A DNA stretch of 64,000 bases from contig CAZRZK010000012.1 of the NCBI GenBank assembly GCA_964604555.1, positions 7,870 to 71,869 of the forward strand, given 5' to 3'. The notes under the pieces are model-generated. The model was not told where the DNA came from. It did not search any database and saw only the letters and a list, made by a program, of their open reading frames with translations. Of this stretch, positions 15,508 to 51,043 are shown piece after piece. The position numbers were made by a program, and so were the translations under genes. The stretch comes from an uncultured Pseudobdellovibrionaceae bacterium. Lineage in GTDB: Bacteria > Bdellovibrionota > FAC87 > UBA2466. Numbering within the stretch: the first letter of the stretch is position 1; each line of letters starts with the position of its first letter.

Positions 15508-15567
15508 ATTGCCGCGTCGCCCTTCAGGCTCCTCGTCATTGCGAGGAGCCGAAGGCGACGAAGCAAT
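15508..15567. repeat. hairpin copy of the dispersed GTCATTGCGAGG...GACGAAGCAAT repeat family
   Basis: ATTGCCGCGTCGCCCTTCAGGCTCCTCG-TCATTG-CGAGGAGCCGAAGGCGACGAAGCAAT forms an imperfect hairpin. It starts 5 nt after the hppA stop codon. Related units occur at 20083-20178, 39182-39293 and 48358-48432. Confidence 0.75.
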
Positions 15568-48281: not shown

Positions 48282-48295
48282 TAAACTGTCTCAAA

Positions 48296-48331
48296 GCGCC
48301 GTTCTTCAATAAGGAGAACGGCGCTTTTTTT
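48296..48331 (+). terminator. rho-independent terminator of the metalloprotease gene
   Basis: GCGCCGTTCT-TCAATAAG-GAGAACGGCGC followed by a T8 run. It begins 15 nt after the stop codon. Confidence 0.8.
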
Positions 48332-48357: not shown

Positions 48358-48432
48358 GTCATTGCGAGGAGCCAAAGGCGACGAAGCAATCTCGCCGGCA
48401 TTGCTTCGTCGCCTTCGGTTCCTCGCAATGAC
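48358..48432. repeat. best-preserved hairpin copy of the dispersed GTCATTGCGAGG...GACGAAGCAAT repeat family
   Basis: GTCATTGCGAGGAGCCAAAGGCGACGAAGCAAT-CTCGCCGGC-ATTGCTTCGTCGCCTTCGGTTCCTCGCAATGAC. The arms are 33 nt with about 2 mismatches. Confidence 0.8.
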
Positions 48433-48456: not shown

Positions 48457-48963
48457 TTAATGAGTCGACCGCTTCAACAAGTGAAGTGCTTGTCGTATCA
48501 CCTCAGTATCGGATCGAACACCTAAAGCTGTGCGAAGATTCTTAAGGAGCTCAATCTCATCTTGATACATTCGAAACGTTTTGAGTCGTGAAGCGCCTCG
48601 ACTTTTTTTAGGCAACCATTTGCAATATTCTGATGAAGGAATTCCCCGGAACTCTTGGTGTGCATTTCCAGAGAGAATTTCACTCACTATAATTTTGAGA
48701 TCCTGCGGGGTTTTATACATCCGGAGATATTTGGGACGGGTCGCGATAAGAGCAGGAAGGACCTCTAAAATGCGAGGCTCTATGGTTCCGGCCCATAAGG
48801 CATCTTCAATTTCTACCGGCCCGCCGTATTCTGGAATATCAGGTGCATCTAATAGTTTTGCTCGTTTCAGCTTACCTACCACATGTACAAATCTATCGGT
48901 TCTCTTCGCAGCTGCGAGCATCCTCGCTTTAGCTTGAAACTTTTTCAGGATTTTATCGTTCAT
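48457..48963 (-). CDS. hypothetical protein with a C-terminal ribbon-helix-helix-like DNA-binding tail
   Basis: 168 aa from the ATG at 48963, or 169 aa from the GTG at 48966. The C-terminus is KTFRMYQDEIELLKNLRTALGVRSDTEVIRQALHLLK, which follows the strand-helix-helix pattern of CopG/Arc-type RHH domains. The N-terminal ~120 aa are unassigned. The start overlaps the upstream stop codon (TGATG). Confidence 0.6.
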   Translation of the reverse strand: MNDKILKKFQAKARMLAAAKRTDRFVHVVGKLKRAKLLDAPDIPEYGGPVEIEDALWAGTIEPRILEVLPALIATRPKYLRMYKTPQDLKIIVSEILSGNAHQEFRGIPSSEYCKWLPKKSRGASRLKTFRMYQDEIELLKNLRTALGVRSDTEVIRQALHLLKRSTH

Positions 48964-49439
48964 CACTTTAGAAATTCCTCAAGATCAATTTCATATTTCT
49001 TAGCAAGCTGTAAGAACAATGGGCTCGGTTGGGTTCCGAGATACTCAATAATGAGGTTTTCGTTCTTCTTTCTTGCCATTTTAGCCTTTGAAACAAGGAC
49101 ATATTCCGGCTGCGCTACAAAGCACTTCACAAATTTGCCTGCATAAATTGGATTGAACTGTGTCTCCTTCGGCATCCATGCTTCATGACCCACAGGATCA
49201 ATTTTCTTTCCATGGATTGCGAGCAAAGCATCTAATTTCTCCCGAATGGCGCCATGCAACTGTTTATGCAAATCCACATCCATTGTGGCCGCTAATCGAA
49301 TACCCATACGTGCTTCTAAAAGAGCGGTTTGTCCAATGATATAGAGCTCACAGTGTTGCACGAGGGTTCCCATTTCCGCCCTCTCCTGGTTTTCTTCGGT
49401 TAACCATTTATCGAGTTCTTTGCAAACTTCCTTTAGCAT
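48963..49439 (-). CDS. nucleotidyltransferase-fold protein (AbiEii/DUF6036-like minimal NTase)
   Basis: 158 aa. ELYIIGQTALLEARMGIRLAATMDVDL resembles the G[GS]-x(n)-DxD NTase core. VLVSKAKMARKKNENLIIEYL resembles the K..A.R.kD helix of that family. The assignment is by eye. Confidence 0.5.
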   Translation of the reverse strand: MLKEVCKELDKWLTEENQERAEMGTLVQHCELYIIGQTALLEARMGIRLAATMDVDLHKQLHGAIREKLDALLAIHGKKIDPVGHEAWMPKETQFNPIYAGKFVKCFVAQPEYVLVSKAKMARKKNENLIIEYLGTQPSPLFLQLAKKYEIDLEEFLK

Positions 49440-49447
49440 AAATACAT

Positions 49448-49499
49448 AATATCACAACTGATATTCTGATATATACAATTATTATGCATTTAATATCAA
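49448..49499 (-). promoter_or_regulatory. promoter (TTGATA-18 nt-TATATA on the minus strand) overlapped by four AATATCA/TGATATT heptamers
   Basis: -35 is the reverse complement of 49494-49499, and -10 is the reverse complement of 49470-49475. A perfect palindrome AATATCA-CAAC-TGATATT lies at 49448-49465. Further heptamers lie at 49467-49473 (TGATATA, overlapping -10) and 49492-49498 (AATATCA, overlapping -35). Confidence 0.55.
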
Positions 49500-49513
49500 T
49501 AACTTAGTAATAA

Positions 49514-51043
49514 TTACATCGGCATAATGGGATAATGGCGAGTCCGCGGAGAATTCTTAAGCCCGTAATAACCTAAGCGCTGCACCAGACTCTGCCTCAG
49601 ATCGGAAGCCTCGATCATATCGTCGATAACCAGCTCATTCGCCAGCCGGTGAATATCGACATCCTTTTCATACTCCTCCACCTTTTTGGCAAAGAAACTC
49701 TTCTTCTCTTCGGGGGACATCGCCTCCATCTTATTGTAATAGACTGCGTTCACGGCAGGCTCCGCCCCCATCACCGCAATTTTGGCGGTGGGGAGTGCAA
49801 TCACGCAGTCGGACCCAAACGCAGGTCCCGACATCGCATAGAGTCCCGCGCCAAAAGCTTTGCGGACTACCACACAGATCTTAGGAACCGTGGCGGTCGA
49901 CATGCTGTGGATCATCTTGGCTCCCGCCCGGATCATTCCCTCTTTTTCTACTTTCGATCCGATCATGTAGCCCGGAACATCGGCGAAAAATAAAATAGGG
50001 AGTTGATAGCTCTGGCAGATCTGCATAAAGCGCGCCGCCTTATTTGAAGACTCCACAAAAAGGACGCCTCCTTTTACCATCGGTTGGTTCGCGACAATTC
50101 CCACGGCACGCCCTTCAATGCGAGCAAAGGCGGTGACCACCTCTTTCGCGTAAAGCTCCTTCACTTCAAAAAGGGAATCCTTATCGACGACTCCTTTTAA
50201 CACTTGCCGCATGTCATAGGCTCGATTCTGGGCTTCAGGTATCAACCCCGCCAGTTTATCGGCAGAAATTTCAGGAGCAGTTGGCGCAATTGCAGACACT
50301 CCCGATACAAAATCTTTCGGCATGTAAGATAAATATTTTTTGGCTAAAGCGATGGCACTTTTTTCATCAGGGGCTAAATAATCGCCACACCCACTAGTCG
50401 TGCAATGCATGCGGGCGCCGCCCATCTCTTCGAGAGTCACCTTCTCCCCAATCACCGCCTCGGCCATACGAGGGGATCCTAGGTACATACTGGCGTTTCC
50501 TTCGACCATGATGACGATATCGCAAAAAGCGGGAATATAGGCGCCTCCTGCAGCTGACGGGCCAAACAGAATGCAGATCTGAGGGAAGCGGCCCGAGAAG
50601 TTGGCCTGATTAAAAAAGATCCTCCCGGCCCCTCTTCTGCCCGGAAACATCTCTACCTGATCGGTGATGCGTGCTCCAGCGCTATCGACGAGATAGAAAA
50701 CTGGAACTTGCAACCTTTCCGCTGTCTCTTGGAGCCTTAAGATCTTTTCAACGGTTCGCGCGCCCCATGATCCCGCCTTTACGGTGGAATCATTAGCGGC
50801 AATCGCTACCGTTTTACCGTCGATTTTACCGAGTCCGGTGACCACTCCATCCGCAGCCAAGCCTTCAGCTAGGCAGTTGGCAAAAAGGCCGTCTTCTATA
50901 AAACTGCCCTTGTCACACAGCAACTCAATCCGATCCCGGGCAAAGAGTTTTTTACTCTCAACCAATTTCGCCCGATTTTTTTCGCCCCCTCCTTGAGAGA
51001 GGCGTTTCCTCATTGCCGTAATTGTTTCGCCCGTTGCTGACAT
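49514..51043 (-). CDS. acyl-CoA carboxylase carboxyltransferase subunit (methylcrotonyl-CoA carboxylase beta type)
   Basis: 509 aa. LFARDRIELLCDKGSFIEDG..., ANDSTVKAGSWG and GPSAGGGAYIPA. The cluster context includes HMG-CoA lyase and an enoyl-CoA hydratase. Confidence 0.85.
   Translation of the reverse strand: MSATGETITAMRKRLSQGGGEKNRAKLVESKKLFARDRIELLCDKGSFIEDGLFANCLAEGLAADGVVTGLGKIDGKTVAIAANDSTVKAGSWGARTVEKILRLQETAERLQVPVFYLVDSAGARITDQVEMFPGRRGAGRIFFNQANFSGRFPQICILFGPSAAGGAYIPAFCDIVIMVEGNASMYLGSPRMAEAVIGEKVTLEEMGGARMHCTTSGCGDYLAPDEKSAIALAKKYLSYMPKDFVSGVSAIAPTAPEISADKLAGLIPEAQNRAYDMRQVLKGVVDKDSLFEVKELYAKEVVTAFARIEGRAVGIVANQPMVKGGVLFVESSNKAARFMQICQSYQLPILFFADVPGYMIGSKVEKEGMIRAGAKMIHSMSTATVPKICVVVRKAFGAGLYAMSGPAFGSDCVIALPTAKIAVMGAEPAVNAVYYNKMEAMSPEEKKSFFAKKVEEYEKDVDIHRLANELVIDDMIEASDLRQSLVQRLGYYGLKNSPRTRHYPIMPM

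Follow-up and report, generated by a model that had tools for sequence, protein, structure and literature searches.

Two small, overlapping genes on the minus strand, designated A and B, were analysed in a stretch of 64,000 nucleotides (nt) from an uncultured Pseudobdellovibrionaceae bacterium (contig CAZRZK010000012.1), the whole of which is referred to as the window. The two genes very probably constitute a conserved, self-regulated module of a nucleotidyltransferase and a ribbon-helix-helix protein. The locus is best explained as a chromosomal, self-regulated toxin-antitoxin (TA)-like operon of a previously undescribed family, found mostly in predatory bacteria; that the module works as a TA system with A as the toxin is favoured with moderate confidence. 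No paper describing this nucleotidyltransferase/ribbon-helix-helix pairing was found in a literature search. The genes and the relevant parts of their products were located in the window as follows.

48963..49439, minus strand: gene A, an open reading frame (ORF) of 158 amino acids (aa), predicted minimal nucleotidyltransferase and putative toxin.
49272..49334, minus strand: predicted catalytic core of A, G36-Q37-x16-D54-V55-D56, from the alignment of both tiers of the family and the structural model.
49197-49199, minus strand: D81, predicted third carboxylate of A, conserved in at least 90% of sequences.
49062..49091, minus strand: helix motif of A, S117-K118-A119-x-x-A122-x-x-K125-N126 (family consensus SKAxKAPxKN).
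48457..48966, minus strand: gene B, an ORF for the putative antitoxin and autorepressor, with its stop codon at 48457-48459.
48604..48963, minus strand: all-helical N-terminal domain of B, approximately residues 1-120 (AlphaFold2 predicted local distance difference test (pLDDT) score about 90), proposed to neutralise A.
48460..48588, minus strand: C-terminal ribbon-helix-helix of B, residues ~126-168, with the beta-strand L127-K128-T129-F-R131.

Linkage and predicted folds of A and B

Gene A followed by gene B recurs in about 125 distinct loci. B was located directly downstream of A in 44 of the 45 first-tier loci recovered with the A profile, the sole exception being cut by a contig end, and in 60/60 loci of the divergent tier; the usual overlap of the two genes is 4 nt. 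The pairwise identities of A and B are correlated (r=0.82, 4465 pairs). A and B are strictly linked and co-evolving, and of the features by which a type II TA system is recognised, those of gene organisation (two small, co-transcribed, overlapping genes, inheritance as a unit, and variable contexts) were found. In the window, ORF calls agreed with a preliminary description of this DNA, which had reported two minus-strand ORFs of 158 and 168 aa joined by a TGATG overlap. The junction reads GTGATG, in which the ATG of B shares 1 nt with the TGA stop of A, and B is 168 aa long from this ATG (48963) or 169 aa long from the GTG (48966). The junction in the closest relatives is ATGA; the GTG at 48966 is therefore the B start in register with them.

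The hosts are nearly all Bdellovibrionota (Bdellovibrionia, Bacteriovoracia and Oligoflexia, including Halobacteriovorax marinus) and Myxococcota/Polyangiaceae, with a few bins of Desulfobacterales, Acidobacteriota, Dadabacteria and Pirellulaceae. Two A-B copies per genome were found in at least two genomes. The flanking genes vary by locus and include an integrase, a transposase or dnaA; a copy with 80% identity adjoins rhodanese and acyl-CoA dehydrogenase genes, and one with 77% identity adjoins cytochrome c nitrite reductase. Neither A nor B was present at 80 loci encoding the carboxylase that neighbours the pair in the window, including those of three Bdellovibrio-like genomes in which the hydratase and the carboxylase are arranged in the same way. 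Given these 80 loci and the varied flanks, the pair is not fixed next to liu genes; the idea of a mobile two-gene cassette in varied contexts was supported, and the opposing scenario, a pair fixed beside liu/carboxylase genes, was rejected. The GC content of the module is 42-45%, against approximately 50% in the flanks.

In a comparison with empty sites the nearest genomes were only 67% identical in the carboxylase; the pair is absent downstream of it, and an insertion site could not be defined. With the nearest representatives at 67% carboxylase identity, the species-level genome set contains no close sequenced relative of the window organism. In one of these representatives, the metagenome-assembled genome (MAG) AM_0619 (L007, L052), the A-B pair lies on a different contig from the liu-type operon. 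A degraded module (L190/L201, contig CALQIT020000005.1) was seen in a MAG labelled Streptomyces griseus; given the distribution of the family, this contig may be mis-binned. An apparent 323-aa A-B fusion from the representative search (P0194) was considered as a sign that A and B interact physically and was rejected, as its Arg-rich linker resembles the end of A translated out of frame; the protein probably reflects a frameshift or pseudogene and not a true fusion.

Protein A gave no match in Pfam, NCBIfam or PADLOC. Its homologues comprise 98 close relatives and 241 clusters from a profile search of 1.84 billion representative proteins, and form two tiers of 158-170 aa whose homology is clear (hhalign probability 100%, E 2e-46). 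Only unannotated relatives were listed by a second, word-indexed protein search with the A profile, a profile search of PDB sequences returned nothing, and a Foldseek search of BFVD gave no significant match. G36, Q37, T52 and D56 are invariant in both tiers; at least 90% of sequences share D54, D81, W88, P90, S117, K118, A119, A122, K125 and N126. The helix motif, which was used as a search pattern and recovered 61 loci, likely contacts the nucleoside triphosphate or the substrate. It had been described as a K..A.R.K helix; the motif itself held up in the conserved form listed above, and its arginine proved not to be conserved.

The AlphaFold2 model of A (pLDDT 93.9) has an alpha-beta-alpha-beta-alpha-beta topology (helix 2-22, strand 30-35, helix 36-43, strand 54-57, helix 63-74, a short strand 79-80, strands 95-100 and 104-109). 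G36-Q37 is placed at the beta1/alpha2 junction, D54 and D56 on beta2, and the short strand after it carries D81; as modelled, this arrangement is the core of a DNA polymerase beta-type nucleotidyltransferase. The elements that define this superfamily, an hG[G/S]-x9-13-DhD motif, a third carboxylate on the next strand and the core topology, were recognised in A, where the motif reads I35-G36-Q37-x16-D54-V55-D56, with two deviations from the consensus, a Q in place of G/S and a spacer of 16 residues. The top matches in a Foldseek search of PDB were mostly nucleotidyltransferases (NF90/NF45, the DUF1814 protein JHP933, terminal uridylyltransferases and the aminoglycoside nucleotidyltransferase ANT(2'')-Ia).

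A divergent member of the family, P0257, was matched by the A profile at E=3.5e-21 and by Pfam DUF6036 over residues 31-165 with 25.7 bits, against a gathering cut-off of 23.6; at its locus, too, B is the partner and the same box lies upstream. Because P0257 matches both profiles, A would be a distant, unannotated branch of the DUF6036 nucleotidyltransferases, by transitive homology only. No significant DUF6036 match was obtained with the A protein of the window or its close relatives (best of 34 relatives, E=0.12), and no paper mentioning DUF6036 was found in the literature search. The conserved catalytic residues, the confident model with its nucleotidyltransferase core, the top Foldseek matches and P0257 together suggest that A is an active enzyme. 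The nucleotidyltransferase assignment of the preliminary description thus received indirect support, from the GQ-x16-DVD motif with D81, the model topology, the weak Foldseek enrichment and P0257.

The ribbon-helix-helix reported earlier at the C-terminus of B was confirmed by its Pfam score, by its relatives and by structural matches. RHH_1 scored 20.4 bits (E=5e-4), which is 0.1 bit short of the cut-off of 20.5, and matched 4/18 B relatives (best E 9e-5). Foldseek aligned the C-terminus with ParD, PrpA, MazE-mt1 and Arc at a root-mean-square deviation (rmsd) of 1.6-2.2 A over 40 residues and template modelling (TM) scores of 0.6-0.73, with a probability of up to 0.96 (TM 0.73, rmsd 1.8 A), and the fold is accordingly that of a ribbon-helix-helix. 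A profile search of PDB with B gave chance-level matches and a weak match to the ribbon-helix-helix of NikA, and in PHROGs nothing but weak matches to ribbon-helix-helix regulators was obtained. Within the domain, conservation is highest in the beta-strand L-K-T-F-R, which is consistent with a conserved operator to which the domain would bind.

The N-terminal domain of B had been noted as a stretch of about 120 aa with no assigned family, and it had no relative in Pfam, PDB-sequence or Foldseek searches; all Foldseek matches of B were through the ribbon-helix-helix only. Across the family the only invariant residues of B are E62, R64, P70 and W116 (168-aa numbering). The HEPN motif Rx4-6H and an invariant histidine are absent from B, and neither a HEPN Pfam match nor a HEPN structure among the Foldseek matches was obtained.

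The conserved promoter and putative operator

The spacer upstream of gene A (49440-49513) is 74 bp long and AT-rich, as described earlier. The following elements were located in it.

49469..49476, minus strand: candidate operator box GTATATAT, a copy of GTATATAC with one mismatch, with its start 37 nt ahead of the ATG and an overlap with the -35 position.
49446..49451, minus strand: candidate -10 hexamer TATTAT, its end 6 nt ahead of the ATG.
49448..49465, no strand assigned: perfect palindrome AATATCA-CAAC-TGATATT, overlapping the candidate -10; putative clade-specific second site.
49492..49499, minus strand: upstream TTGATATT, including the TTGATA -35, conserved only in the nearest clade.

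The deeply conserved upstream element of the family is the palindrome GTATATAC, with the variants GTATTTAC and GTATGTAC. Exact copies of GTATATAC were counted 25 times in 4.6 kb of upstream DNA versus once in 380 kb of flanking DNA (approximately 2000-fold enriched). With at most one mismatch it was present in 34/40 unique first-tier loci and 36/60 second-tier loci; in Myxococcota a pair of boxes, spaced 23-24 bp apart, is usual. In the largest group of loci the start of the box lies 37-38 nt ahead of the start codon. The 3' half of the box (TATACA, TTTACA or TTGACA) sits at the -35 position. The ribbon-helix-helix of B would be the protein that binds this box.

In 42/102 unique loci the start codon lies exactly 6 nt past the end of a -10-like hexamer, versus 0-18 loci at the other offsets scanned, and no Shine-Dalgarno sequence was found before A. 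From these two observations a leaderless transcript starting at about 49439 is argued, and the conserved core promoter is probably leaderless, lying approximately 24 bp downstream of the TTGATA-18-TATATA promoter proposed earlier. Leaderless A-B mRNAs, as read from window positions 49440-49451 and the 42/102 loci, were unexpected for Bdellovibrionota.

The sequence of the TTGATA-18-TATATA promoter is present (49494-49499 and 49470-49475), although it was not called by a consensus promoter scanner, and TATATA, taken earlier for its -10, is instead part of the box conserved throughout the family. TTGA(T/C)A was found 18 nt upstream of TATATA in 5/6 aligned promoter regions (TTGACA in L048) and is absent from deeper relatives. 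The upstream TTGATATT may be the -35 of a second promoter or an extra operator half-site. Four AATATCA/TGATATT heptamers had also been described; three are exact (49448, 49459 and 49492) and the fourth matches in 6/7 positions. The whole window contains 15 copies versus 8.6 expected, 3 of them within 51 bp. The perfect palindrome AATATCA-CAAC-TGATATT, also described earlier, is exact at 49448-49465, and TGATAT(C/T)AT palindromes occur at the same position in the nearest clade only (L004, L010, L048 and L051). The heptamers were rejected as the family operator because they are conserved only in this clade; the conserved candidate operator is GTATATAC.

Partner loss and the weighing of explanations

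In the favoured explanation, free A would act as an active minimal nucleotidyltransferase and inhibit growth, transferring a nucleotide onto an essential macromolecule; this toxicity and this kind of target are proposed by analogy with AbiEii/MenT. The helical N-terminal domain of B would bind and neutralise A. The ribbon-helix-helix dimer of B would bind the GTATATAC-type box over the -35 and, in the clade of the window, also the TGATAT palindrome over the -10. Binding would shut off the promoter of the leaderless A-B mRNA, on which A and B would be translationally coupled. The varied neighbourhoods, the genomes with two copies, the GC content lower than that of the flanks and an asymmetric decay would together make up a TA-like population behaviour.

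The decay was assessed in 125 unique loci obtained by pooling A-seeded and B-seeded loci. Both genes are intact in 100/125. B is intact and A frameshifted, truncated or gone in 12 loci (L148, L159, L186, L187, L190, L192, L198, L228, L211, L219, L221 and L233). A is full-length and B truncated in one clear locus, L158, where B keeps its N-terminal domain and lacks the ribbon-helix-helix only. Both genes are truncated in L035, L042 and L200, and the B of L181 is divergent only. As A motifs were the route to most loci, the sampling disfavours loci that have lost A and the asymmetry is conservative. The pattern fits an A that is harmful without B; it is suggestive, not decisive.

A solitary B lies directly behind a GTATATAC or GTATTTAC box, approximately 60 nt upstream, in L211, L219 and L233, with no trace of A; these genes resemble orphan autoregulated antitoxins. 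In a Desulfobacterales MAG (L221:2173-3384) a 226-aa DprA-like protein (Pfam DNA_processg_A, E=2e-12) precedes B with an ATGA overlap and replaces the nucleotidyltransferase. This locus may be a partner swap, suggesting that B is a modular antitoxin.

The polarity could also be reversed, as in type VII MntA-HepT, with the helical domain of B as the toxin, A as an antitoxin that nucleotidylates B, and the ribbon-helix-helix autoregulating the pair. The 12 loci in which B is intact and A broken or gone, three of which have the box directly before B, are hard to reconcile with a B toxin that needs A. The nucleotidyltransferase-first order and the small size of A do resemble MNT-HEPN pairs, in which the nucleotidyltransferase is likewise the better conserved partner (PMC2701414); HEPN-RHH fusions have been reported (PMC2701414), and the invariant polar residues E62 and R64 of B could form an active site. 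B is nevertheless without the Rx4-6H motif and without a HEPN match in Pfam or Foldseek, and a reversed polarity is considered quite improbable.

An orphan repressor could persist harmlessly, which accords with a further explanation in which there is no addiction module: A would act on small molecules as a nucleotidyltransferase, inactivating for example an antibiotic or metabolite, and B would be its dedicated repressor with a ligand-sensing N-terminal domain. The same alternative was raised for MNT modules by Makarova et al. (PMC2701414), the hosts, predators of soil and water, are exposed to antibiotics, and the best PDB TM-scores of A (0.32-0.33) are to ANT(2'')-Ia, although the structural matches of A are all non-significant. 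A has only 158 aa and no separate substrate-binding domain. The strict pairing, the 4-nt overlap and the co-evolution at r=0.82 would be unusual for an enzyme and its regulator; the copies are scattered, sometimes duplicated and often decayed; and the box was not found elsewhere in the window or in the flanks, which argues against a regulon. This explanation is judged unlikely.

Phage defence by abortive infection, with A released on infection, would be a sub-case of the favoured TA explanation and not an alternative to it. Some nucleotidyltransferase TA systems, such as AbiE, do protect against phage (PMC3985639), and the self-contained two-gene design would fit. PADLOC-DB 2.0 models gave no match to A or B at E<=1, no A homologues were found in viral contigs, the PHROG matches are weak and restricted to ribbon-helix-helix regulators, and the neighbours are housekeeping, not defence, genes. 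The link to abortive infection or defence islands entertained in the preliminary description thus found no support, and a defence role is very unlikely.

Several results weigh against the TA explanation with A as the toxin. The A protein of the window matched none of the Pfam nucleotidyltransferase models even at E<=10, and none of its Foldseek matches in PDB was significant (best E 0.17, TM approximately 0.3). B is barely more divergent than A (mean identity 33% versus 36%). Plasmids, phages, defence islands and PADLOC models showed no association with the pair. The box in the window has a mismatch, the -35 there is poor, and two candidate promoters are present. The decay asymmetry is 12 versus 1 under strict classification and 12 versus 5, not significant, under lenient classification, and some of the frameshifts may be assembly errors in MAGs.

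TA modules with nucleotidyltransferase toxins are already known; the A-B family is real and widespread within its lineages. If the TA explanation is true, it would give a first functional context to DUF6036 and to an unannotated branch of approximately 240 clusters at 50% identity, and would add a new antitoxin domain of unusual layout, with the folded domain first and the ribbon-helix-helix last. It would also reveal a TA family missed by current TA and defence annotation tools, in predatory bacteria whose growth control is poorly known. The well-defined GTATATAC box, as the putative operator, and the predicted leaderless promoter layout make the regulation directly testable. The view of such systems would be unchanged unless the N-terminal domain of B acts by a new mechanism. 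A bolder version, to which only a small chance is given, combines a DUF6036-type nucleotidyltransferase with a new antitoxin fold whose invariant E-P-R...W site would be enzymatic or inserted into the active site of A. B might then, for example, reverse nucleotidylation or be nucleotidylated itself, instead of merely sequestering A, and the pair would found a TA class restricted to lineages of predatory bacteria, Bdellovibrionota and Myxococcota. If so, it would supply the first DUF6036 function and a new neutralisation mechanism.

Neighbouring sequences and comparison with known systems

The neighbours are those given in the preliminary description. On one side of the pair lies a convergent gene for an HExxH metalloprotease with its terminator (48293-48327), followed by a hairpin; on the other, a carboxyltransferase/enoyl-CoA hydratase operon reaches its end at 49514. 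A terminator was not detected in positions 49440-49513, from the carboxylase stop (49514) to gene A, and transcription of the metabolic operon upstream may therefore run on into A-B. One further element was located beyond B.

48358..48432, no strand assigned: hairpin with 33-nt arms that are 94% complementary, 25 nt past the B stop; repeat element.

The hairpin may serve as a terminator of the A-B transcript too. It gave only sub-threshold, microRNA-like matches in Rfam. Its arms are the 33-nt sequence GTCATTGCGAGGAGCCAAAGGCGACGAAGCAAT, of which a third copy lies at 15535-15567, approximately 33 kb away, and the repeat resembles a dispersed REP/MITE-like element.

Comparison of families, motifs, gene order and folds upheld the earlier statement that the pair matches neither AbiE nor MNT-HEPN. 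The closest family likeness of A is to DUF6036 (PF19502), with which it shares a size of approximately 160 aa and the nucleotidyltransferase core, and whose gathering score is passed by P0257; the A protein of the window and 33 close relatives are without a significant match, and DUF6036 itself has no known function or partner.

Like AbiEii/MenT (DUF1814), the pair forms a bicistronic operon in which a nucleotidyltransferase of the DNA polymerase beta superfamily is the proposed toxin. The spacing from G to DxD is long in both (16 residues in A, 15 in AbiEii), and both have a basic helix C-terminal to the core. The AbiE antitoxin autorepresses through inverted repeats in its promoter (PMC3985639), a trait that is proposed here as shared. 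AbiEii is defined by motif III, KLxAaxxR, and motif IV, +DxxD (PMC3985639); the former is only loosely mirrored by K118..A122..K125 of A, and the latter is not conserved in A. Moreover, A has no PF08843 match, is half the size of AbiEii and has Q for G/S after the motif glycine. The gene order is also reversed, with the nucleotidyltransferase first, whereas AbiE has AbiEi (COG5340) upstream, and B has a C-terminal ribbon-helix-helix whereas on the AbiEi/MenA side a winged helix-turn-helix lies at the N-terminus. On these grounds the A-B pair falls outside AbiEii/DUF1814.

MntA-HepT (MNT-HEPN, type VII) resembles A-B in that a minimal nucleotidyltransferase is encoded first, by a gene overlapping that of a small helical protein; MNT-HEPN modules are likewise mobile two-gene units (PMC2701414). 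The defining HEPN four-helix bundle with Rx4-6H and the NTP_transf_2/Polbeta match were not found in A-B. B has no HEPN motif, sequence match or fold match and carries a ribbon-helix-helix instead, and, judged by the decay seen here, the harmful partner would be the nucleotidyltransferase and not the helical protein.

The ribbon-helix-helix antitoxins and repressors (ParD, PrpA, MazE-mt1, CopG and Arc) superpose on the C-terminal 40 residues of B and likewise have palindromic operators that overlap the promoter. Those antitoxins carry the ribbon-helix-helix at the N-terminus and bind the toxin through a short C-terminal tail that is often disordered, whereas in B a folded domain of 120 aa comes first and the ribbon-helix-helix is C-terminal.

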